DNA of 64,000 nucleotides from a phage, in NCBI GenBank assembly GCA_033664045.1, contig GCA_033664045.1_3674.1; one strand, 5' to 3'. Below are positions 13,675 to 45,783 of the stretch, piece after piece (within the stretch, counting starts at the first letter, position 1; every line of letters starts with the position of its first letter). The position numbers were made by a program, and so were the translations under genes. The notes beneath the pieces are model-generated. The model was not told where the DNA came from and made no database searches. It saw nothing but the letters and a program-made list of their open reading frames with translations.

Positions 13675-14880
13675 ATGATTTTCATCTACGAACATTTCAA
13701 AACCCGTAAAGAAGCACGAGACCGCCGTGCAGAACTGGAGAAAAAGGGTTTCACATGTGCCATTGAGAAAGGCGACACAACCTGGACACTGGCAGTGGGT
13801 GCCCCAGAGTTGTTCGATCCTGACCGTGACAGCGTCTGCTACACCCGTGAGGATTTTGAAACCCGCGAAGAGGCCCGTTTATTTCGATATGGTCTGGAAG
13901 ATAACGGCAAGTACGCTATGATCTTAGATTTAGGCGAAGGTTCCGTTAAACGTTGGGGCGTGGTATATCCCCTGTGTGTTGTTCACGGTGTGGGGTTCAC
14001 TGGGGTGGCAATCAAGTCAGAAGAACCTTTAGTAGAAGTCAAAGATCCGGTGCTGGAGGTGGTGAGCAGTGTGTCTCAGCAACAGACTCGAAGCATCGAG
14101 CCTTTGGTAGTTATTTGTGGGGAACTCCTCCAGATCACCTGCAACGAAGGTATTTTTGAAATTCGCCGCAGTGAAAGTGAGGAAGTTTACCAGAAAGTCT
14201 TCGACCATATCTCTGTTCAGGAATATGATGAGGCAATTGGTGAAATCCTTGTCTGGCTGGAACGCAAGAATGAGTTCACCACACTTGCAGACAACCTGAT
14301 CATGAAAGATGGTAAGCTCTACTACTACGGTGTAGAGATGCGATCCACCATTGCAAAGAAAATTGAGAAAGACTATGCAGACGGAACACTGGATGACCGC
14401 TATGTGAAATTCCTCGTTCGCCTGCTACGCAATCCTTCTGCAAAATCTGTAAACATGCTCTACGATTTTATGCAGGCCAACGATATCCAGATTGCAGAAG
14501 ATGGTCGAATCGTTTGCTACAAAGGTGTTCAGTTTAACGGCAGCAAGTGGGTGGATTGGCACAGTGGTAAAGTTCCACAATACCAGGGTGCTTTTGTATC
14601 CATGCCTCGTAACTTTGTAGAGGATGATCCGGAAGCTGCGTGCTCCTATGGCTTACACTGCGCCAGCAAAGAGTATGCAAAAAGCTACGGCACTGTAATG
14701 ACTGTTATGGTTGACCCTGCAGATGTGGTTAGTGTGCCATACCAACACAATAGCGCCAAGTGCCGTGCATGCCGCTATGAGATTGTGGTAGCTCCGGAAG
14801 CACGCAAGGACGGAGACCCGATTGAATACGTGGTTGACAGAGATGGTAACACTATCGACATTCTTTACGAGGAGGTGTAA
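13675..14880 (+). CDS. Hypothetical protein with N-terminal tandem repeat, possibly rIIB-like
   Basis: Track ORF; two repeats FKTRKEARDRRAELEKKGF / FETREEARLFRYGLEDNGK; translationally coupled to both neighbours. Confidence 0.5.
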   Translation: MIFIYEHFKTRKEARDRRAELEKKGFTCAIEKGDTTWTLAVGAPELFDPDRDSVCYTREDFETREEARLFRYGLEDNGKYAMILDLGEGSVKRWGVVYPLCVVHGVGFTGVAIKSEEPLVEVKDPVLEVVSSVSQQQTRSIEPLVVICGELLQITCNEGIFEIRRSESEEVYQKVFDHISVQEYDEAIGEILVWLERKNEFTTLADNLIMKDGKLYYYGVEMRSTIAKKIEKDYADGTLDDRYVKFLVRLLRNPSAKSVNMLYDFMQANDIQIAEDGRIVCYKGVQFNGSKWVDWHSGKVPQYQGAFVSMPRNFVEDDPEAACSYGLHCASKEYAKSYGTVMTVMVDPADVVSVPYQHNSAKCRACRYEIVVAPEARKDGDPIEYVVDRDGNTIDILYEEV

Positions 14881-16250
14881 TGGAAAAAGGGCAGTATGAT
14901 GTAGGCACAGATGCTGCCCTCGTTGCAATCATGAGCGGTGAGAATGTCTTCGTTTCAGGACCCGCAGGTTGTGGGAAGACGTACCTCATCAACATGATCC
15001 AGTCAATGTATGGAGACTCTTGCATAACGGTTGCCCCGACAGGGGTAGCCGCTTTAAACGTTAATGGAGCAACAGCACACCGAACCTTCGATCTTGCAGC
15101 AGGTGTGAGCATGGAGTCAGACTGGACCGCAATAAGGGCAAAAACAGCAAAGCCTTTGAAAAGCAAGGCATTTACCATCCTAATTATCGATGAAATCTCT
15201 ATGATCCGTGCTGATAAGTTTATAGAGATGGATAGGAAACTTCGCTTCCTTCGAAAAAATGACAAACCTTTCGGAGGCATACAGGTCATATTGTTTGGCG
15301 ACTTTTACCAGGCACCTCCTGTTGTCTCTTCTATGGAGAAGGAAGCCTACTTCAACTTCTACCATACGGACCTGTGTTGCTATACCGAATCTTGGAAAGA
15401 GCTTGACCTCCACAACATAGCCCTAGTAGATCAGTTCCGACAGGAGTCTATTCGATTTGCCACAATGCTCAACTGTGTTCGTGAGGGTCGTCGCATAAAA
15501 GAGGTTGTAGCAGAGCTTAATGCTCGCTGTTACAAAGGCGGTGTACCAACAGACGCTCTCACAATTTGCGCCACCAACAAACAAGCAGAGGAAGTGAACA
15601 GAAGGTTCTATGATGCCATCAACGCCCCAGAGAAGGTATACACTGGTGAAATGAAGGGTAAGTTTCCCTCCACCCTACCAGTTGAGCAGGAGATGAAGTT
15701 GAAAATTGGCATGAAAGTTATGATAACCGCCAACGATGTTGACCCAACGCACAAAGTACCTTATTATGTTAACGGAACACGTGCCACAATTGTTAAATTT
15801 AAGAACAAGGCAGTGGTGGTAGAGCTTGAAGATGGAACACAGGTTGACATAGAGCAGATGTTGTGGGAGAATAACGAATATAAGCCATCTCAGAGATACA
15901 ACATTGCAGAAAGGAAGATGGAGAAGTTTATAGAGAGGGTAGTGATCGGGTCATATAAGCAACTCCCTCTGAAATCTGGGTACGCCGTAACATCTCATAA
16001 AAGTCAAGGACTTACACTAGATTGTTACAACCTAGACCTTGGAAAGAACGGAGCTTTCTCTCCTGGGATGACGTATGTCGCTTTGAGTAGAGTTAAGACA
16101 ATACAAGGAATAAACTTGTTGCGTCCACTAAGAGAGGTTGACATTATTGTTGACCCGCGAGTCGTAGAGTTTTACAATACAACATTCCCTGACTTAGACA
16201 AAATTGTCAGGAAAGATTTTGAAACCAGAGCCGAAGAGGGGGACGTATGA
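14880..16250 (+). CDS. Pif1/RecD/Dda-like DNA helicase
   Basis: Walker A GPAGCGKT, Walker B LIIDEISM, GDFYQAPPV, VTSHKSQGLT. Confidence 0.85.
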   Translation: MEKGQYDVGTDAALVAIMSGENVFVSGPAGCGKTYLINMIQSMYGDSCITVAPTGVAALNVNGATAHRTFDLAAGVSMESDWTAIRAKTAKPLKSKAFTILIIDEISMIRADKFIEMDRKLRFLRKNDKPFGGIQVILFGDFYQAPPVVSSMEKEAYFNFYHTDLCCYTESWKELDLHNIALVDQFRQESIRFATMLNCVREGRRIKEVVAELNARCYKGGVPTDALTICATNKQAEEVNRRFYDAINAPEKVYTGEMKGKFPSTLPVEQEMKLKIGMKVMITANDVDPTHKVPYYVNGTRATIVKFKNKAVVVELEDGTQVDIEQMLWENNEYKPSQRYNIAERKMEKFIERVVIGSYKQLPLKSGYAVTSHKSQGLTLDCYNLDLGKNGAFSPGMTYVALSRVKTIQGINLLRPLREVDIIVDPRVVEFYNTTFPDLDKIVRKDFETRAEEGDV

Positions 16251-18657: not shown

Positions 18658-19321
18658 CTGGAGCAAGTATTTCACCTACAGTGACGGCAAACTGTTCTGG
18701 GCGTACACTGCAAAAGCCGGAAGGGGCAGGGTTATACATTACGCAGGTGAGGAGGCCACAGGTACAGATAAAAATGGCTATAGAGTGATATATGTGTCAG
18801 GTGTTGGGAGTGTTCGTAGGCATAGAATAGTTTGGGAGATGCATTACGGGGAGATACCCGAAGGACTTGTTGTGCGGCACAAGAACGACATAGCAGGCGA
18901 TGATAGGGTAGAGAACTTAGTCCTAGGTACACAGGGCGATAATGCACGAGACATGATCTACAGTGACAAACTGAGCATTAACAATACCTCAGGGTGTCGA
19001 GGTGTACGCTACCATAAAGGCATAAAAAGATGGATTGCATCTGTTGGAGACATATACTTAGGATGTTTTAAGACAAAAGAGGATGCAATTGCATGCAGAA
19101 AGTTATGGGAGAAGGGAAAATTCGTCCCGCAAGAGTTGGATGTTAGAAACACTAGCGGTGTAACAGGAGTGTTCTATGTGCCGAGCTCTGGAAGGTGGAG
19201 AGTAAGAGTGCAAAGCGGCAAAAAGAGAAAGAGCTATGGCACTTACAATACTTTAGAAGAAGCAAAAGCTGTAAGAGATAGAGTGATGAAAGAGATTGAG
19301 GAGTTTAAAGATGGGGAATAA
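18650..19321 (+). CDS. HNH homing endonuclease with AP2 DNA-binding repeats
   Basis: HRIVWEMHYGEIPEGLVVRHKNDIAGDDRVENL (HNH); two AP2-like repeats (GCRGVRYHKGIKRWIASV…, GVTGVFYVPSSGRWRVRV…). Confidence 0.75.
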   Translation: MVDWSKYFTYSDGKLFWAYTAKAGRGRVIHYAGEEATGTDKNGYRVIYVSGVGSVRRHRIVWEMHYGEIPEGLVVRHKNDIAGDDRVENLVLGTQGDNARDMIYSDKLSINNTSGCRGVRYHKGIKRWIASVGDIYLGCFKTKEDAIACRKLWEKGKFVPQELDVRNTSGVTGVFYVPSSGRWRVRVQSGKKRKSYGTYNTLEEAKAVRDRVMKEIEEFKDGE

Positions 19322-21389
19322 GTTTATATCCTCTGCATATAGCCGCTATGGAGAACCCAACCCGGTTGCAACAAGATACAAAAGTGGGGGCAGTATGAAA
19401 CGAGACTATCGTGATGAAAAAGAGGTTGAAACTGTAGAGACTGTTTTAGAAAATACTAAAATTGTCCCTGTTCCACAACAGAATATAGGGCTAATGGCTG
19501 CTCAATATTTTGGTGTGCGATCAGCATTATCCCAAGAAGATGGTGTGACAGTCACTGCAACATATTTTCCATATTATGACCGCTACGGAAATCTGTCTGG
19601 TTTCAAAAAACGTGATTGGTCTAAGCCGAAAGAGCAGAAAGGACACTGGTCTGTAGTAGGCATCGTAAAGGCTAACTCCCAGATGTTTGGTCAAAAGCTG
19701 TGTGCATCTTCCAACAACCGTAAGCAGATTAACGTTTGTGAGGGGGAAGGTGATGTTATTGCAGCATGGCAGGCTGCATATCAGATACAAGTAAAAGGGA
19801 TTCTCACCAACGCTAAAGCCCCGGCAAAGGTGAAGCAGTGGGCTAAAGAGGTCCAAGACGGGATCGACGCAGTTATCAACGGTGGTGATCTGGCAGGAAA
19901 ACCCTGCCTGCCTTTTGTTGGAATTAACTGTGGATGTGCAAACGCAGTAGATACTTTTGCAAACAATGAGAAGTTTATCCGTAGCTATGGAACAGTTGTG
20001 CTGGCAATGGATAACGATGCAGCTAACGAGGTAGAGAAGCAAAAACACGTCATCAAAGGTGTTGAGGCCACGCACAATATCGCAGCATTTTTGATGGCTG
20101 ATAACGTTTACCACGTAGAATACCCCGGTGAAGTAAACGACCCTGATGGTGTAAAAGATATCCGAGACATGCTGAAGGCTAAAAAGCTGGAAGATATTGT
20201 CAACATGTTCCGGCATCCTGTTAAATATGTACCTGATGCTGTGTCGGATTTAGAAGACTTCTCTATCGAGTCTTTGCGGAAAAAGACTTCCAACGGGGTA
20301 GATATCAGTGCAGAGTTCCCAAAACTGCAAAAAATGCTAAAAGGCTTGCACAAAGGGACACTCGTAATGCTTACAGGTCCATCAGGCGGCGGTAAAACAA
20401 CCGTGGCTAAAAAACTGGAACACTGTATTGCAAGATACCTAATGGACCCGACATGCCCGAAGGCCGATGACTATGAAGAGGATGATCGTCTATGTATGAT
20501 CCATCTTGAGGAGGATCCAGAGGAAGCAATTAACTCCTTGTATGCAAACCAGTTAGGGTTTGATGTTAAAGAGTTTGTTGAAGATCCTAGCCAGTTTTTA
20601 ACTGATCAAGAACACGCAGAGATTCACCAATCATGGGCAAAAGCTGGAAAAATCAAAGTGTTCAAACATTTCGGGTCTATTCCGGTGGACGAGTTGATTA
20701 CCAAGCTTAAGCAAATGGTTTGCCTGTACCATTGTCGTTATATTGTGCTGGATCACCTGTCCATGGTAATTTCAGGGCTTAATGTTAAGGATGAGCGAAA
20801 AGAACTGGACATGGCTATGACCCAACTGGCTGCGTTTTGTAAGCAGTTTAACGTGTTTATCTTGGTGATCGCTCACCTCAAACGTACAGAGATTGTGCCT
20901 CCTAAAGACAAGGATGGTAACCCGTTACCTTTCTGGTATCCTGTGCGAAAAGAGAATTTGCGAGGATCGGCTGGGCTTGAACAGTTGAGTTGGGTAGTCA
21001 TAGGTGTCGAGGCCGAAGAAATGGTGGATCGTTCTCGTGGGCGTGTCCGTTTAGTAGGTCTTAAAAACCGTCCAGCAAAAACATTGGGTATTGCAGACAC
21101 TTTGGTTATGGACCCACATACAGGTAAGTTCCATGATGCCAGTAATTGGTACTGGGACAAAGAAATGCAAATGTTTACAGATGGAGAAGGTGGGGAGGTT
21201 GTTTGGAGACCTCAGGCTATGTTTGAGGATCAGGAGCATGCAGTTGTAGAAACACCTATGGGCAAGGTTGTGGCTGATAAGGTTGTAACTCCTACTGTTA
21301 AGCCTGTTGACACGCAGGAAGACCTCCAGTACGATGATCCGTCCTCTGACCATGTTCCTGGTTTTGAGGATGATGAAACACCTTTTTAA
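19311..21389 (+). CDS. Primase-helicase (T7 gp4-like)
   Basis: TOPRIM-like EGEGDVIAAW / AMDNDAANE; helicase motifs LTGPSGGGKTT, YIVLDHLSMV, LVIAHLKR. Confidence 0.85.
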   Translation: MGNKFISSAYSRYGEPNPVATRYKSGGSMKRDYRDEKEVETVETVLENTKIVPVPQQNIGLMAAQYFGVRSALSQEDGVTVTATYFPYYDRYGNLSGFKKRDWSKPKEQKGHWSVVGIVKANSQMFGQKLCASSNNRKQINVCEGEGDVIAAWQAAYQIQVKGILTNAKAPAKVKQWAKEVQDGIDAVINGGDLAGKPCLPFVGINCGCANAVDTFANNEKFIRSYGTVVLAMDNDAANEVEKQKHVIKGVEATHNIAAFLMADNVYHVEYPGEVNDPDGVKDIRDMLKAKKLEDIVNMFRHPVKYVPDAVSDLEDFSIESLRKKTSNGVDISAEFPKLQKMLKGLHKGTLVMLTGPSGGGKTTVAKKLEHCIARYLMDPTCPKADDYEEDDRLCMIHLEEDPEEAINSLYANQLGFDVKEFVEDPSQFLTDQEHAEIHQSWAKAGKIKVFKHFGSIPVDELITKLKQMVCLYHCRYIVLDHLSMVISGLNVKDERKELDMAMTQLAAFCKQFNVFILVIAHLKRTEIVPPKDKDGNPLPFWYPVRKENLRGSAGLEQLSWVVIGVEAEEMVDRSRGRVRLVGLKNRPAKTLGIADTLVMDPHTGKFHDASNWYWDKEMQMFTDGEGGEVVWRPQAMFEDQEHAVVETPMGKVVADKVVTPTVKPVDTQEDLQYDDPSSDHVPGFEDDETPF

Positions 21390-21447: not shown

Positions 21448-24225
21448 ATGAGTATGTATAGCTTCGATTTTGAGGCCTCTGGGCTTTTGGAAGATCCAGA
21501 CCTTTATTATCACTGCGGCCTGTTTAAAGCGTTGAATAAGAACCGTTTTATGCTGTTCCTTCCTCTGAATGACCGCACACACTACTCCGAGGAGGATATA
21601 GAGAAGGCTAAGAACTTTATTCTGGCAAAGAAAACTCTTTATAAGGATTTTGAAGTTCGCATAGCAGATTTTTCGGAGTTGGAAGGGTGGCTTACAGGAA
21701 ATTCTGACTGGTCACCCACAGCTTTGAACTGCCACAACTGCTACAGCTACGACTTTATGCTGATGGAGAGATTGTCCGGTATTCATTTTGATATGTTCCG
21801 TGATCCTAAGTGTATGGGGACTATCAACGACCACCAGGTTAATCTGTTTGATACATTGGCTATGAGCCGAATTTTGTGGCCTGACCGACCTTTGCCAAAA
21901 GGTTGTCCAGACGCTGTATTCAACCCGGTTACTAAGAAAATGCAGCCTGTTGGTCCTCACGGCCTTATGGCATGGGGCTACGCTCTTGGTAACCAGAAAG
22001 TTCAAATTGATGACTGGCGCGATCTTCCGTTGTGGAAGTATGTGGATCGTGTATTCGAGGACGTTATCATCCAGGAGCTGCTCTGGAAAGAGCTGGTAGC
22101 GGAATCAAAAGGTGTATTCTACGGCAAATCTGACATGCAGAACTTTATGTACGATCCTGCCAAAGAGAAGCCGAAAGGATTCAAGAAGATCACCTGGAAG
22201 AACGCATTACGTCGAGGCATGCTGCAGCACTTCCTGATGGAGCTGCAGGCCCGTCAGGGCGTATACTTCGACATAGATGGAGCTATTGCTTTACGTGACC
22301 GTTGCGATGCGTGGATGAAAGAAATCGCTGATCGTGTTGAACCACAACTGCCTTTAAAAGAGCTGTCAATGTCTCAGCGGCCCAAGTTCCCTGAAAAGCC
22401 GTTTAACCAAGACGGGACAATCTCCAATAATGGTTGGAAATGGTTAAAAGATAAGCTTGGCTATCCTGTAGACATGAGCGCTTTAGAGTTCAAAGCCCCG
22501 CCTAAGAGAGCATTTACCTCTACAGGAGATGTCAGCAAGATGGGGATAAAATGGTGTGAAGAGATGGGATGCAAAGACCCCGATAAGATGGCTGATTTCT
22601 TGAGAGGCTATATTAAGGGCACTTCCACACCACACCCTTTGCCTAAAGAGCTGATGGATCAGGCAATAAGTGATCTACAGCAGAAGCGAATGCCGGACTG
22701 CAAGATACCTATGAAAATCAGCAACCAGGACGACATTAAGCGATACCTGATCAGTGCTGGCTGGCTTCCGACAATGTGGAGAACTAAGGATGTAACTAAA
22801 GACAGCAAGAAGAAAGCTTTACCTGATGCAGATGTTGATGCACGAGTATATGCATATATGGACGAGCTTTTGGAGTCAGAGTATTGTGACCTAATTATCA
22901 ACTTCTGGAACAAAACTGATGCTAAGTTCCAGACAACCGTGCACAAGTTCCGAAGCTTTCCTAACTCCGAAAGGATTAAAAAGGAAGTATTCGGGAAAAT
23001 ACGTAGAAAAGCTAGGGCACTTATTACTTCTCCGCAACTGAAAGATACGTTTGGACACCTATGCCCAAATCTTGAAAAATTGAACGGAGAGATGGCTAAA
23101 GATATCGTCTTGTGGTTATCATTGCGAAACCGCAGATCGGTCCTTGATCCAATCAAGGAGGATAAGGTTGATACTGGTCTTCTTAATCACCCACGCTTGA
23201 AGATTGACCATAAGCTTCCTGCTAAAAGTTCTGGATTAACAAACACTTCCCGACAGAAACACAGTATTTGTGCAAACATGCCTAAACCATCTCCTAAAGT
23301 GGTTATGGGTAAAGAGATGCGTAGTCTGTGGGGTGTTCCTCCAGGATACTTTGAGATCGGTATTGACGGGTCCAACTTAGAGCAGCTTATCGGGGCTTGG
23401 GGTGCCTTTGAGTTCGACAACGGCTTGTATTATGATGTTGTAAGTAACGGGGACGCACACCAAAACAATGCTGAGGCATATACAAAAGTAGCAGGCAGAG
23501 AGGTGTCTCGTAACGACGGTAAACCTATCACGTATGGGGTTATGTACGGGGCACAAAAAGATAAAGTTGCAGACATGCTGGATATCTCTCCAGAGTTGGG
23601 GCAAAGGGTAATCGATGCGCTTTGGGATGCCAACCCAGGTCTTAAGGGGCGTAAAGAGGATCTGGAGAAATTCTGGGAAGCAACTGGTAAGAAGTTTATC
23701 TACTCTTTTGATGGTCATGCCATCTGGACCCGATCTAAACACTCTTTACTTAATGCATACCAACAAAATGGCGGTGCATCGTTGTGTGATTTAGTTGGGA
23801 TACTCATGCACCACCAAATGGTGAGGCGTGGGTGGTACGATGAAGGTGTTCGTCGTATTATCTATTACCATGACGAATATCAGCTTCAAGTACCTGACAC
23901 ACCGAAGTATAAGACTGTGTACACCTTCGACACAATTGAAGAATTGGAAGCATTTAAGGCAGAGCAGGAGGCCAAACTTCATGTGTTCGACGGTCATAAG
24001 TACAAAAAGGCACGCAAGGATGAAAACGGAAACGAAGTGGTTGACAGAGACGGAAACACGGTGTACGATCCTATCTTGAACGATGACGGAAAGCTTGAAC
24101 TTATCTGGAGTCCTGTGGGCGAAATGGTGGTACATTGCTTCTGGCAAGCTTCTAAAATGATGGGAGTCCCGTTCCAGATCACAGGTGAATACTTGTGTGG
24201 TCGTAATTGGGGTGATTGTCACTAA
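21448..24225 (+). CDS. Family A DNA polymerase with 3'-5' exonuclease domain
   Basis: Exo I-like FDFEASGL; motif B RNDGKPITYGVMYG; motif C YYHDEYQLQV; 925 aa. Confidence 0.9.
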   Translation: MSMYSFDFEASGLLEDPDLYYHCGLFKALNKNRFMLFLPLNDRTHYSEEDIEKAKNFILAKKTLYKDFEVRIADFSELEGWLTGNSDWSPTALNCHNCYSYDFMLMERLSGIHFDMFRDPKCMGTINDHQVNLFDTLAMSRILWPDRPLPKGCPDAVFNPVTKKMQPVGPHGLMAWGYALGNQKVQIDDWRDLPLWKYVDRVFEDVIIQELLWKELVAESKGVFYGKSDMQNFMYDPAKEKPKGFKKITWKNALRRGMLQHFLMELQARQGVYFDIDGAIALRDRCDAWMKEIADRVEPQLPLKELSMSQRPKFPEKPFNQDGTISNNGWKWLKDKLGYPVDMSALEFKAPPKRAFTSTGDVSKMGIKWCEEMGCKDPDKMADFLRGYIKGTSTPHPLPKELMDQAISDLQQKRMPDCKIPMKISNQDDIKRYLISAGWLPTMWRTKDVTKDSKKKALPDADVDARVYAYMDELLESEYCDLIINFWNKTDAKFQTTVHKFRSFPNSERIKKEVFGKIRRKARALITSPQLKDTFGHLCPNLEKLNGEMAKDIVLWLSLRNRRSVLDPIKEDKVDTGLLNHPRLKIDHKLPAKSSGLTNTSRQKHSICANMPKPSPKVVMGKEMRSLWGVPPGYFEIGIDGSNLEQLIGAWGAFEFDNGLYYDVVSNGDAHQNNAEAYTKVAGREVSRNDGKPITYGVMYGAQKDKVADMLDISPELGQRVIDALWDANPGLKGRKEDLEKFWEATGKKFIYSFDGHAIWTRSKHSLLNAYQQNGGASLCDLVGILMHHQMVRRGWYDEGVRRIIYYHDEYQLQVPDTPKYKTVYTFDTIEELEAFKAEQEAKLHVFDGHKYKKARKDENGNEVVDRDGNTVYDPILNDDGKLELIWSPVGEMVVHCFWQASKMMGVPFQITGEYLCGRNWGDCH

Positions 24226-32171: not shown

Positions 32172-32480
32172 TACTTGAAAATTCCTGGCATATCAAGTAT
32201 AAGGGGGATTTCTAAAATGGATTTCCTCCTTTTGATATTTCACCGGGCTGGATATTTTAAAATTCTTAGAAAATCAGAAAATGGATCGAAAACTAAAATG
32301 GATTTTTCAGAGTAGGCGCGACAAGCTGAATAACTCATCCTATCGTTTGCACCATATTCCAGGCCACAATTACAGATTTCCAGCACATGCTCCCACCCTT
32401 CTACTAGAACTTCCTCCACTTACCCTTTACCTTCTATGGTAACAATCTAACCACTATCTTGAAGTTGCGGTGCAGCTTTC

Positions 32481-32665
32481 CAGGTACTCGATCTACTTTT
32501 CATTTCAGGGCTTGGATTTTCTGAAAATTTTTCTCGATAAATTTCTCAGTACTCGATCTGTTTTTCGTTTTCTGAATCGGATTTTCTGGAAATCGTTCCG
32601 GATCTCGACCTGAAATTTTTGGGGACGAAATCGATTTTTCGTTTTCAGAAATGGATTTTTAAAAT
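32481..32665. repeat. Iteron-like imperfect direct repeats (three copies of about 45 bp)
   Basis: CAGGTACTCGATCTACTTTTCATTTCAGGGCTTGGATTTTCTGAAAAT (32481), CAGTACTCGATCTGTTTTTCGTTTTCTGAATCGGATTTTCTGGAAAT (32546), partial copy at 32626. Confidence 0.6.
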
Positions 32666-32773
32666 TTGTATATGGAAATATTTTAGGAGGTATTATTTTA
32701 TATAGAATTGTCACGGTAGGTAATTAGCATGCTAACTAAATTTATGAAATGCGAAAAGTTCTCATTTAGAATT

Positions 32774-32792
32774 TTGAATGATAATCATTCTC
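32774..32792. promoter_or_regulatory. Fur-box-like site
   Basis: TTGAATGATAATCATTCTC, about 15/19 to the Fur consensus GATAATGATAATCATTATC. Confidence 0.4.
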
Positions 32793-32801
32793 GTTTGCAG
32801 A

Positions 32802-32830
32802 ATAACGGGCACCCCCGGTGATTGTCTCCC
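32802..32830. repeat. Left arm of a perfect 29-bp inverted repeat
   Basis: ATAACGGGCACCCCCGGTGATTGTCTCCC; exact reverse complement at 41615-41643; a degenerate direct copy at 32937-32965. Confidence 0.8.
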
Positions 32831-32893
32831 GGCCCCTACTGCCCCGGCTTGTTATTATAGTAACACACAGGACAAAGAAAGCAAGAAGTTTTT

Positions 32894-32929
32894 TGCATAA
32901 ATTTTTAGACGATAATGATAATCGTTCTC
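32894..32929 (+). promoter_or_regulatory. Candidate Fur-repressed promoter
   Basis: TTGCAT, 17-bp spacer, GATAAT; the -10 lies inside GATAATGATAATCGTTCTC (32911-32929), 17/19 to the Fur consensus. Confidence 0.45.
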
Positions 32930-33187
32930 ATTTTATGCAGCGCCCATCCCCGGTGGTTGTCTCCCTGTCACCGGTGCCTGCCGTCCTTTCGATATGTATA
33001 TTGTGCCACCTGGCGGGGCCGCTGTCAACACTTTTCAAAAAATTTTTCTAACCTGATGCGCTAACCGCTGCAACCTGGCGGGGCCAGCCTGGCAGGACCT
33101 AACTGACCAGGTAGGAGAGAATGAAGGCTTGCAAACCTGGTGGGCCTATGCTATAGGATAGGTAACAATTGAAGAGGAGGTACAAAA

Positions 33188-39838: not shown

Positions 39839-39903
39839 ACCTGGCGGGGCCGAAAAGGCCCCTACAGCATAAAATCATAAAAAATAAAGAGAGGCAAATC
39901 ATC

Positions 39904-42489: not shown

Positions 42490-42909
42490 ATGAACATTAA
42501 ATCTAATAATCCGGCATATAGCTTTGATAACGCTTTTTGTCACGGTCCGGCGGCGAAAGGATTCGAAATCGATGGTAAACTAATTATTGTCAATGTTGAC
42601 GGGGAAGAGGTTGCAGTATATCCGGTGGCAGACGTTAAAAGCCGTTTGCAATGCCGCATGGATGTTACCGCCTATCAGCTTGATCCGGTCCGCATAGTTG
42701 CCCTGGTCCTGGAAGAAGAAATTAAAGCCATGCACCATAGCAACAGGTTTATTGGTGACGCACAGGATAATATGAAGGTATGCCGCCATAAAGTTAATGA
42801 AGTGCTTAAAGAATATGGCTTTAAAGATCTGATGATCAAACGTGAGGAAAAATTCCGTTATCGTAACGACCTGGCAAATCGGATTTTTGAAATATACGAA
42901 TCATTATAA
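42490..42909 (+). CDS. Hypothetical protein
   Basis: AAGAGGTAAAAA site; terminator follows. Confidence 0.55.
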   Translation: MNIKSNNPAYSFDNAFCHGPAAKGFEIDGKLIIVNVDGEEVAVYPVADVKSRLQCRMDVTAYQLDPVRIVALVLEEEIKAMHHSNRFIGDAQDNMKVCRHKVNEVLKEYGFKDLMIKREEKFRYRNDLANRIFEIYESL

Positions 42910-42929
42910 TTTATTAACTGAATTATCAA

Positions 42930-42954
42930 GGGGCTTAAGGCCCCTTTCTTTTTG
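42930..42954 (+). terminator. Rho-independent terminator ending the rightward small-gene block
   Basis: GGGGC-TTAAG-GCCCC followed by TTTCTTTTTG. Confidence 0.65.
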
Positions 42955-43570
42955 TTTGCTCTTTTCCTACCACAAACGGCCCAGCCTGGCAAGTGGAATA
43001 ATTGACTAGCCATCAATCCCGCACACTGTACAAATATACATATAAAATAGATATTGCATAACCTTTCATTGTGTGGTAGCAGGGCCATTTTTACACGTTT
43101 TTCCTTCCAAAATTGCACGTAATGCAGCTATTGCACAAAATTTAACCTGATGCACATCTTCAGTATACTGTCAACAATTAAAAACCCTTATAAGTCATAC
43201 ACTTACACAAACCAAAAAGCGTGTCCTACGTGAAAAATCGGGTGTAACTATAGCCGACAGATCTCAGAATCCACGTACGATCACCATTCTATAGCCTGCA
43301 AAGTATTTATTCCAACCACAGAATAACGGAATAGTCAATACCTGTATAAAATAATTATTCGTATAAACTGCATAACATAAACCCGCCCAGGTGTCAACAT
43401 TTTTCGTAAACAGTCCGAAATTGTCACGGTGAGTTATCATAAATAGAGAAATATTTAGTCGTCTAATGTTTACTGTACATTACTATACTGACTGGAATCA
43501 TTAGATGACTAAGAGAAAGATAAGAAATAATTAACAATGTAAGTATTTTACCTGCAACAATAAGGCAACT

Positions 43571-43803
43571 ATGCAAACGAATGTCATGGCGCGACGGAGT
43601 CGCGACATAATATAAAAGCAGTAACCATCACCCCCGTGATAGTTTGTCTGCAAACTATTAATCAGATCATAGTTGCCTTGTATTTAGTTAATCATGACAT
43701 AACAAGCAAGGCAACTATAGATCTTCTAATAGTTGCCCTGCTTTTATATTATGTCATCTATTGTAAATCAGTTAATTGTTTTCATGCAAACGAATGTCAT
43801 GGC
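43571..43803. repeat. 20-bp perfect direct repeat pair and ATAGTTGCC repeats
   Basis: ATGCAAACGAATGTCATGGC at 43571-43590 and 43784-43803; ATAGTTGCC / GGCAACTAT at 43564, 43669, 43710, 43729; palindrome AGTTTGTCTGCAAACT at 43641. Confidence 0.7.
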
Positions 43804-43830
43804 TTATCATTTTTGAGTAAATAGTTTGTT

Positions 43831-44030
43831 TGTAAACAATCTATACGTAAACAGTTAACTATGTAAACTATTAGATATGTAAACTATTGGTTATGTAGAC
43901 TATCAGGAATGTAAACAGTAAAGCGAGTGAATAGTGAGAGCGTAAACAGTCAGGCATGTCAATTATGTTTAATGTGCCCAGTATGTCACTATTGTGTCTA
44001 AAGTGTCATAGTATGTCACAGTATGTCAGA
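43831..44030. repeat. Arrays of short direct repeats
   Basis: Seven copies of TGTAAAC-like motif at about 15-bp spacing (43831-43950), then four to five copies of GTATGTCA (43955-44030). Confidence 0.7.
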
Positions 44031-45446
44031 CAAGTTTTTCTCCTCTTTGTCAAGTGCTGCATGAAAAATTTACAAACTGGTATGGTAGCATTTTTGCGGC
44101 CCTGTTTACATTCAGTAATGTATGTATAATCCTTGTTGTGTGGGCGTTTGGACGTCTAGACGGTTGGAAGTCTGCAGGTCAATATCTAATCTATTGGCTG
44201 CTAACTATATCCCACACAAATAGTAAGAAATATGATTGTTATATGCGTAAACAGTAACTCATGTTATCAATCCCTGTATGTATCGCCAGTGGTGCGCATA
44301 ATGGGTATTATGTTAAATTGCCCGTAATGATAACTATTCTCACAATGATAGGTATTCTCATTCACCCCCACAAGATAGGTTGCAAATGTTGTGCCACTGT
44401 GTGAACGGCCTCACCTATTAATTTGCCTCACTGCCTCGATATTTGAGAATTGTTATAAGAATGAGAAGTATTCCCATTCCGTCCGCCTGGCAGCACTCCA
44501 GTCGCTACGGCTCATAACAGGGCAGAACTGGGTCCATTCAGATATTTCTGGCTGGCTCTTCAGGTCTGTGTGGGAAAAGCCAACCTCTCCTGCGGCGGGG
44601 AGGGGGTCAATTAAAAAATTTACGTGGTATATGTAGCGCTGTTCAGGTAAGGCATGTATTATGGGATGAAATCCTCTTCAGGCAATGATATTTGTGGGTG
44701 TGATATTTGCTGGAAAGCCAGATATGACGGGACTCCCGGCGGGGCAGGGGTGGTACAGACAGGGAAAATATGGAGGATGTGGTTGGGTGAATTGATCAGA
44801 CAGGTAGAGTATGGAATATGTTACAAGTATGTTAAATATGAAGGGTGAATATCTGTAGGATTTGTGTGTAAAATCAAAGACTTAAGTAGTGTTGTGGTAT
44901 TTTCTATAAATAATTCAAGTTTAATAGGTAATATTTGTCTCTATCCACTTTGTGTGGTAAACAAATTCAGATGAGATTGGTTTACAAGTGTATACATAAT
45001 ATACAAATTAAAGATACAAGAAACCCCCCTCCCCCTTCGGCTACCATTCACCTTTTCCTCTGACTGGTACTTAAACACTTATTCAGACTCTTCAGGTTAT
45101 CACCCATATATCATATGGCAGTGACTGGTGTCCTCCGGCCCCTCTTTCGTCACCCGTCCGCTTCGCCATGCTAATGCCATAGCCAAATGTTCGGTTGTTC
45201 ACCCTGTTCACTCAGGTGTATCTCCATACCCCTTCAAACCGAAGAGAACAGAAAACCCGAATTACTCGGTAAAAGAAAAGAGAAGAACTTAATTTTATCA
45301 AGATAGGCAAGAATGTCAAGGCATGACTGCTCACTAAACAAGCAAACAGTCATGTGCGGTAGGTAAGTGATTGTGGTTGTAGGAAATTTAATTGAAAGAT
45401 GTGTTATAGGTGCTTCCAGCACTTTAGCCTGGCAGCTAATTGTGTG

Positions 45447-45662
45447 TCAGTCCAGCGGTTCATCCTCTACTTCACTGAAATCAATGTTCATGGTCTCTTC
45501 CCAACCATCGATCTCAGCACAAGAGTGGAGTTCTTTAGGGTTTACTCCCAAAGCCTCAGCAACAGAGTCTATATTTAACACCTCTGGCAGGTATGATTCA
45601 TCGAATTCAAGGTAAATCAGGCCACGAGTGTTGTCAGCTCCACCAAATATTTCTATCTTCAT
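45447..45662 (-). CDS. Hypothetical acidic protein
   Basis: Track ORF; last gene of the leftward block. Confidence 0.45.
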   Translation of the reverse strand: MKIEIFGGADNTRGLIYLEFDESYLPEVLNIDSVAEALGVNPKELHSCAEIDGWEETMNIDFSEVEDEPLD

Positions 45663-45783
45663 GAAATCTCCTCTGGAAATGAGAGTGTGAACAGGGTTTC
45701 ATACGTTCCAGTGCACAGGAATTATGCACGTTTGCCTCTTCAGGCCATGCTTTAGCATGAGAAACCTGTGTGGGCTCGGTGCT

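Follow-up and report, generated by a model that had tools for sequence, protein, structure and literature searches.

A gene-poor gap at positions 42956-45446 of a 64,000-nucleotide stretch of phage DNA (contig GCA_033664045.1_3674.1 of GenBank assembly GCA_033664045.1; the whole stretch is called the window below) is probably the part of a Vequintavirus genome that contains the chromosome ends, or the concatemer junction, with arrays of short repeats for terminase recognition and processing. Database matching of the region identifies the source phage of the window as a Vequintavirus, an rV5-like coliphage and myovirus: 122 phage records match the 2.6 kb around the gap at 88-94% identity, nearly all of them Escherichia Vequintavirus (~137 kb). 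The window is reverse-complemented with respect to the rV5 record, where the gap is the stretch without annotation between open reading frames (ORFs) ORF163 and ORF164. In the rV5 genome paper (PMC3606486), it is drawn as a grey box that "contained no ORFs" and is labelled "non-coding".

Direct terminal repeat and chromosome ends

The records of relatives in the genus show, as judged by alignment, a linear virion DNA with fixed ends and a direct terminal repeat (DTR) that corresponds to 44029-44487. Because the end repeats of these relatives align to this segment, the window holds one collapsed DTR copy: the two copies of the chromosome are merged into one in this assembly, and the gap is the junction of the right and left chromosome ends. 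The ends are defined by the following features (a slash within letters marks the cut).

44029-44487, no strand: DTR, 459 bp, single copy in this assembly
44028/44029 and 44487/44488: DTR cut sites, TGTCA/GACAAG and CGTCCGCC/TGGCAGC, respectively
44488-44525, no strand: variable patch that starts just right of the DTR and contains a GGCAGCACTCCWGT... unit once or twice

The Gotham record has an annotated repeat_region at both of its ends, 1-459 and 136567-137025, whose alignment to the window gives exactly 44029-44487. The records of HdK5 and ECP2309 start at window position 44487 (reverse strand) and finish at 44029, so that both DTR copies are present. YN3 also has two copies, ECP2303 has the DTR at its record end, and the records of Pr121LW and EcoIv14a_Aya begin at exactly 44029 with one copy. 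The boundaries are fixed, with records from several laboratories opening or closing at exactly 44029 or 44487. The window segment is ~95-98% identical to the DTR of the genus, and the DTR is 92-98% identical between phages. Our comparative alignment comprised 12 phages, namely the window and 11 relatives. In the variable patch, where 30-50 nt indels occur between phages, pairwise identity is 0.44 with 34% gaps.

The DTR has been published for the genus, and the gap had already been called non-coding. The consulted sections of Dias 2020 (PMC7471380) give a DTR length of 459 bp and one common start for all virions, and imply a twofold coverage over the repeat for Gotham; those of Korf et al. (PMC6563267) describe 458-bp terminal redundancies in EdH4 and HdK5. 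For KPP-1, a Klebsiella phage of the genus Mydovirus, the consulted part of the report (PMC9862379) gives a DTR of 514 bp, which was established from 2x coverage and from PhageTerm and assigned to the T7 type. We regard these Vequintavirinae terminal repeats as the same element as 44029-44487. The KPP-1 DTR, too, sits in a convergent gene-poor gap, and comparing this independently mapped repeat with the window DTR, with flanks of +/-20 nt, places the boundaries in register: TGCYA/GRCGGAC at one end, 0-1 nt off at the other. The same sections of the Gotham, EdH4/HdK5 and KPP-1 papers report the length and existence of the repeat only, with no arrays, inverted repeat, invariant block, palindromes or link to the rV5 box. 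In the papers searched, as far as the consulted parts go, we did not find the link between repeat and gap, the T7-like layout of arrays and hairpin with its fixed order of motifs and rapid turnover, or the match of cut sites across genera.

Two other candidates at the boundaries were set aside. A common cut-site motif, TGYCA/GRC, in inverted orientation at both boundaries fits the window as well as KPP-1; in Mangalyan the letters are TGCTA. The motif is a weak lead only. The 543-bp duplication of 44271-44813 in I29 (ON286975.1) is not a trace of the DTR, as its boundaries do not fit. The duplication is joined via a 65-bp inverted piece, lies near the genome ends and is probably an assembly artefact.

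Repeat arrays and inverted repeat beside the left cut

From left to right, the gap consists of the end of the rightward genes, a terminator, an AT-rich spacer, a nested inverted repeat, a GTRAAC array and a TGTCA array that abuts the DTR. Right of the DTR come the variable patch, conserved non-coding DNA and the leftward genes. The repeats on the left side are as follows.

43831-43950, plus strand: array of GTRAAC (TGTAAAC-type) units, six exact and one degenerate, with a period of 15-16 bp
43955-44028, plus strand: (TA)TGTCA array with a ~10-bp period, whose final unit ends at the genome terminus
43562-43803, no strand: nested inverted-repeat (multi-hairpin) element, holding a 20-bp direct repeat, ATAGTTGCC/GGCAACTAT arms and further inverted repeats
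43757-43783 and 43700, no strand: insertion hot spot with at least three alternative small hairpin cassettes among relatives

The original prediction, made from the letters of the window, had listed seven TGTAAAC-type motifs at about 15-bp spacing, followed by four to five further motifs at 43955-44030. The first array is present on the plus strand; its units are six exact GTAAAC copies (43832, 43847, 43863, 43879, 43911 and 43942) and a degenerate GTAGAC at 43895. The six exact copies lie within 116 bp (spacings 15, 16, 16, 32 and 31), where ~0.05-0.08 would be expected (Poisson P ~1e-10); elsewhere in the 64 kb, at most two GTAAAC occur in any 125 nt. This array is also among the least stable duplex stretches of the window. 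The second array contains five copies of TGTCA in 72 bp (43957-44024; spacings 27, 20, 10 and 10), with 0.11 expected (P ~1e-7). No other stretch of the 64 kb approaches the count of either array.

In 12/12 phages, 3-7 GTRAAC units at 15-16 bp or multiples of it are followed by 2-7 TGTCA units, often 10-11 bp apart, and the final TGTCA touches the DTR (TGTCA/GACAAG). The 200 bp left of the DTR (43826-44025) are only 30-42% identical between phages and have many indels; identity jumps back at 44029. The version of the arrays found in the window is absent from ~50,000 database records, with a best match of 82%. In the comparison with related phages suggested at the outset, the arrays are conserved in kind, that is, in motif, period and position, and not in sequence or copy number.

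The nested inverted repeat stands to the left of the arrays. Its 20-bp direct repeat, ATGCAAACGAATGTCATGGC, was correctly called: the copies at 43571-43590 and 43784-43803 are 100% identical. ATAGTTGCC does occur in both orientations, as two pairs (43562-43573 with 43668-43679, and 43704-43718 with 43729-43743). What had been taken for a perfect palindrome, AGTTTGTCTGCAAACT at 43639-43658, is instead an 8-4-8 inverted repeat, with 8-bp arms ATAGTTTG and CAAACTAT around the non-symmetric spacer TCTG. The element further contains a perfect 18-bp inverted repeat (43604-43621 / 43738-43755) and a terminator-like hairpin on the minus strand (43644-43623). Compared with shuffled sequence, the fold energy of 43583-43803 has z = -9.1 on the plus strand and -7.6 on the minus strand. 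Its core, 43576-43675, is 0.95-0.99 identical between phages, and the 33-nt insertion of rV5 falls exactly in a hairpin loop. By analogy, we infer a role of the inverted repeat in DTR duplication.

By analogy with T7, these elements are likely to work in one mechanism. A T7-like replisome would replicate the genomes, which would then be joined head to tail through one DTR copy. The terminase, probably its small subunit, would load on the phased short repeats outside the DTR. The TGTCA units, with their 10-bp phasing, would offer successive sites on one helix face, leading up to the TGTCA/GACAAG cut; a second fixed cut would be made at CGTCCGCC/TGGCAGC. Duplication of the DTR would follow, through strand displacement or through synthesis primed from a hairpin; the nested inverted repeat, which lies 225-445 bp beyond the boundary, is one candidate for the latter. 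Slippage and unequal exchange would drive the evolution of the arrays; with redundant binding sites, as proposed here, copy number and spacers could drift while the motif and the last unit stay fixed.

This layout resembles the ends of T7. With the same repeat finder, the ends of T7 give CCTAAAG units at 13-bp spacing (175-341) directly after the 160-bp terminal repeat, and the right-hand repeat is preceded by a looser array and a 19-nt inverted repeat. In both systems the terminal repeat is short, direct and exact and its ends are fixed; immediately outside it lie arrays of 6-7 bp units at a regular period (SRL/SRR in T7), and there is an inverted repeat a few hundred bp from one boundary. 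Both also have a replisome of the PolA and primase-helicase type and a promoter aimed at the repeat (leftward A0 in T7; 45319-45292, minus strand, here). The window carries T7-type replisome genes for a PIF1 helicase (14880-16250), a DnaB-type primase-helicase (19296-21389) and PolA (21448-24225). In the model of Chung, Nardone and Hinkle 1990, as cited in the consulted part of PMC4925675, T7 concatemers are processed via a hairpin intermediate. The differences are also clear. Our phage is a myovirus of 137 kb, T7 a podovirus of 40 kb; the two junctions share no sequence similarity, and their repeat units differ in motif and in period (here 16 and 10 bp). Clear arrays are found on one side only, the other having the short variable patch. 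Here the gene blocks on either side run towards the ends, while transcription in T7 proceeds inward from the left end; phage RNA polymerase promoters play no part here.

Several points weigh against the gap being the packaging junction. The termini of the window phage itself are deduced from relatives whose DTR is ~95% identical, and its terminase genes do not fall within the 64 kb. The 2013 rV5 paper (PMC3606486) calls the genome circularly permuted, and a 2026 paper gives a PhageTerm "headful" call for the Vequintavirus BpE1AUH; shallow Sanger coverage or a library type that hides ends may account for these reports. The likeness of the two cut sites, TGYCA/GRC, is broken by rV5 (TGCCT). As for the arrays, their protein-binding role is only a proposal by analogy; the 16-bp period places successive GTRAAC units on alternating helix faces, which is not the classic geometry of cooperative binding. 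Finally, the KPP-1 DTR is flanked by weak short repeats only, so the arrays are not conserved across the subfamily. Packaging sites and replication origins had both been named originally as typical settings of such arrays. The former is supported, with virion termini and the 459-bp DTR located here and the arrays ending at one terminus; the latter has gained no specific support. Operator clusters and non-coding RNAs, the other two original suggestions, may apply to further parts of the gap, namely the Fur-box-like palindromes, the invariant block 45022-45360 and the nested inverted repeat.

Coding potential and the invariant block

The gap is bounded and filled, besides the elements above, by the following features.

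42928-42955, plus strand: Rho-independent terminator that closes the rightward block after the ORF164 homologue (42490-42909), with stem AAGGGGCTTAAGGCCCCTT and then a T-run
42956-43561, no strand: AT-rich non-coding spacer, with ORFs broken in relatives and a pairwise identity of 0.86-0.97
44597-44606, plus strand: GGGGAGGGGG run; G-runs are retained in relatives
44856-45021, no strand: AT-rich, poorly conserved segment of low stability, replaced in 3/12 phages and downstream of the minus-strand G-run
45022-45360, minus strand: almost invariant 340-bp block, with an identity of 0.96-1.00 in the 12-phage alignment
45447-45662, minus strand: last gene of the leftward block, the rV5 ORF163 homologue, at the right flank of the gap

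The convergence of the two gene blocks described in the original prediction is real: plus-strand genes end at 42909 with the terminator, and minus-strand genes end at 45447. So is the absence of convincing genes in the 2.5 kb between them. The region 42956-45446 is non-coding, because its ORFs are broken or unbiased in relatives, a tRNA scan of the region found none and no Rfam family fits. Protein coding was rejected for the 23 ORFs of at least 30 aa, with frameshifts or stops in relatives and codon bias absent. Among ORFs of at least 50 aa, all but one (45128-45292) are disrupted in at least half of the 12 phages; the 64-aa ORF 44654-44848, annotated in Murica, is intact in only three of them. 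ORF 45128-45292 and four shorter intact ORFs sit in near-invariant DNA, and their few substitutions are mostly amino-acid-changing, with no third-position excess; conservation of a coding kind was not found. The Rfam 15 covariance models gave no match to the region at E < 0.9. The top hit, DUF2693 (E = 0.94), scores 20 bits where the gathering score is 81; it corresponds to the terminator hairpin only.

Distant blastn searches with the region found no relatives outside the genus; the gaps of Phapecoctavirus and KPP-1 share short patches only. An exact-pattern scan of IMG/VR added one contig only. Some ~18-19 unannotated "Campylobacter phage" records (MG0656xx) are ~93-97% identical to E. coli Vequintavirus in this region and look mislabelled or contaminated.

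On the left flank, the terminator is of canonical form at 42928-42946, and a terminator is annotated at the same spot in Murica. The Murica annotation also places a Rel homology domain in the ORF164 homologue. The protein of this gene (42490-42909) is 86-91% identical in Phapecoctavirus, a different subfamily, where the gene is again the last one before a non-coding gap of 1.2-1.4 kb, and several records start or end beside it.

The invariant block stands out on the right side of the gap. All 118 full-length database matches agree with it at 97.9% or more, and, like the inverted-repeat element, it exceeds the coding flanks in conservation. It contains the best sigma-70-type promoter of the region (45319-45292, minus strand), TTGACA-16-TAAAAT with TG, an invariant 11/12 match. 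Also in the block are a weak hairpin with a U-run (45269-45257) and a purine-rich stretch of ~264 nt, and conservation stops exactly at G5AG6TTT (45035-45022). Rfam assigns the block to no family (best 10-13 bits), E. coli genomes gave no match to it, and no relative from beyond the genus appears among the database matches. Its function could be that of an RNA gene, of an origin primed by transcription or of an additional packaging signal. A role as CsrA sponge was discarded, GGA motifs showing no enrichment in a hand count.

It is possible, though doubtful, that the gap is there to encode one or more non-coding RNAs, either the ~264-nt RNA started at 45319-45292 on the minus strand or a structured RNA from 43583-43803. 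For the first, the block is more conserved than the region as a whole (88-94%), has a strong conserved promoter, and has substitutions in the overlapping ORFs that lack codon bias. In its predicted fold, the pyrimidine-rich 5' end pairs with the purine-rich 3' end, but the fold is not significant against shuffled sequence (z only -1.64), no Rfam family matches, and the near-invariant sequence shows no covariation. In favour of the second are the z-scores of the inverted-repeat element and the rV5 insertion in a loop; however, the element folds equally well on both strands, as a cruciform or hairpin signal in DNA would. Literature searches found no relevant Vequintavirus transcriptome or origin mapping.

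A replication origin is unlikely. It could take two forms: the arrays would act as iterons beside an AT-rich unwinding element, or the block 45022-45360 would prime replication by transcription. In the second form, the promoter would yield a ~264-nt RNA that ends in G5AG6UUU, remains as a stable hybrid and primes synthesis into 44856-45021. The melting profile fits an origin: in a duplex-stability scan that ranks the 80-bp stretches of the 64 kb, the gap accounts for three of the four least stable, 43470-43549 in the spacer is among the least stable duplex stretches of the window, and the GC content of 43001-44000 is 0.345. AT-rich unstable DNA is nonetheless common in non-coding gaps, and a similar stretch lies at 32629-32708. 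Iteron origins of plasmids and lambdoid phages also have phased direct repeats beside easily melted AT-rich DNA, and the arrays here are direct and phased. Their 16-bp period differs from the usual iteron phasing of ~11 or 22 bp, though, and the array runs into a DNA end, so that an origin would leave the exact stop of the arrays at the terminus unexplained. There is no adjacent initiator gene either, the flanks having small unassigned ORFs only; the T7-like replisome of this phage, for its part, comes without an obvious initiator protein.

The transcription-primed form draws on the invariant 11/12 promoter with TG and on the exact end of conservation at the G-run. In T7, an origin consists of a promoter with AT-rich DNA after it. 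GGGGAGGGGG has just two exact copies in the 64 kb; these, at 44597-44606 (plus strand) and 45025-45034 (minus strand), face each other 418 bp apart. The minus-strand G-run, C6TC5 on the plus strand, closely resembles the mitochondrial element CSBII, at which transcription stops and the primer for replication is made. Cumulative GC skew, proposed originally as a check for an origin, speaks against both forms: it has its maximum (3.25) at 44-45 kb, in the gap, and its minimum at ~7 kb, at divergent promoters. The rV5 authors (PMC3606486) ascribed the local skew change to the orientation of transcription.

On the same side of the gap, CTCTTCAGG recurs on the plus strand right of the DTR at 44556, 44639, 44674 and 45088 (also at 45736), four of its seven exact copies in the window falling within 1.2 kb. 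The copy at 44639 is exact in relatives.

Fur-box-like palindromes and the meaning of the gap

The DTR contains palindromes that resemble the binding site of the host regulator Fur.

44326-44362 (starts 44326 and 44344), no strand: two adjacent Fur-box-like palindromes (AATGATAACTATTCTCA, AATGATAGGTATTCTCATT) inside the DTR, as an 18-bp tandem
44460-44478, no strand: third palindrome of the Fur-box-like kind (AATGAGAAGTATTCCCATT), 9 bp short of the right end of the DTR
32200-33187, no strand: second conserved gap of ~1 kb, without an ORF of at least 50 aa annotated as a gene in rV5-like records

Of the pattern AATGAKAAnnnTTMTCATT, the DTR has three copies and the second non-coding gap another three, at 32748-32932, with 0.1 expected. 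The 19-bp E. coli Fur consensus is GATAATGATAATCATTATC. The box at 32911 has two mismatches to it; in a hand count of two of the three DTR boxes, with the 44460 box left out, 13-14/19 positions match. Records of the Olsen type annotate a 34-bp repeat_region at the 44326-44362 site. The same box is present in the terminal gaps of the Phapecoctavirus ESCO13 (L018 172-190 and 1106-1124) and of the Mydovirus KPP-1 (L022 2414-3160), which are otherwise not alignable to the window.

The second gap has features of its own. No 80-bp stretch anywhere in the window is less stable than the one at 32629-32708 in this gap, and there are two units that combine a Fur-like box with a GC-rich element. Repeats of ACCTGGCGGGGCC lie at 33011 and 33076, with another at 39842. 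No Rfam match was found in 32200-33187.

The palindromes invite a comparison with lambda cos, a model for terminase assembly aided by a host factor, where repeated protein-binding sites (cosB) and a host IHF site lie beside the cut; judged by its sequence, a Fur-box-like palindrome in the DTR may be such a host-factor site here. Lambda has cohesive ends and not terminal repeats, and the involvement of Fur is a matter of sequence resemblance.

An operator or promoter cluster, in which RNA polymerase or a repressor, be it host Fur or a protein of the phage, would occupy the arrays and Fur-like boxes to control early transcription from the ends, appears quite improbable. Read on the minus strand, the arrays are rows of -35-like hexamers (TTTACA, GTGACA), and the gap has 21 promoter-like sites, mostly on that strand, against 10.9 +/- 3.1 expected; yet the matches within the arrays are weak (9/12). 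The distribution of the palindromes, in the DTR, at 32748-32932 and in the gaps of ESCO13 and KPP-1, would suit a regulatory site, but both flanking gene blocks are transcribed into the gap and not outward, and the end of the array at the cut site is left unexplained. That the gap is a functionless spacer, with repeats left by slippage near recombinogenic DNA ends, is very hard to believe: no DNA in the region evolves faster than the arrays, where indels are frequent, but motif, period, order and abutment to the cut are kept in 12/12 phages despite 60-70% sequence turnover, and the inverted repeat and the block are better conserved than the coding flanks.

A combined proposal would have the block act as a transcription-primed origin or a new structured RNA, and the DTR palindromes recruit host Fur or a phage mimic. 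We rate it as unlikely. If true, Fur-like boxes at the chromosome ends would couple packaging or early transcription to iron status.

The reading of the gap as a chromosome-end region accounts for the "non-coding" box of the rV5 reference genome, which had lacked an explanation since 2013. Another consequence is that many Vequintavirus records, including those of rV5, Murica and the BASEL phages, have been deposited with the true chromosome ends buried mid-record. For phage-therapy genomics, it provides the correct start coordinate and orientation for a widely used genus. The relatives form a natural series of array variants, with the motif kept and copy number and spacers changed, that is usable for tests of terminase recognition; the conserved hairpin element and the precise cut sites across genera are likewise usable for tests of junction processing. 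New biology could come from two parts of the region, the invariant block and the Fur-like boxes.

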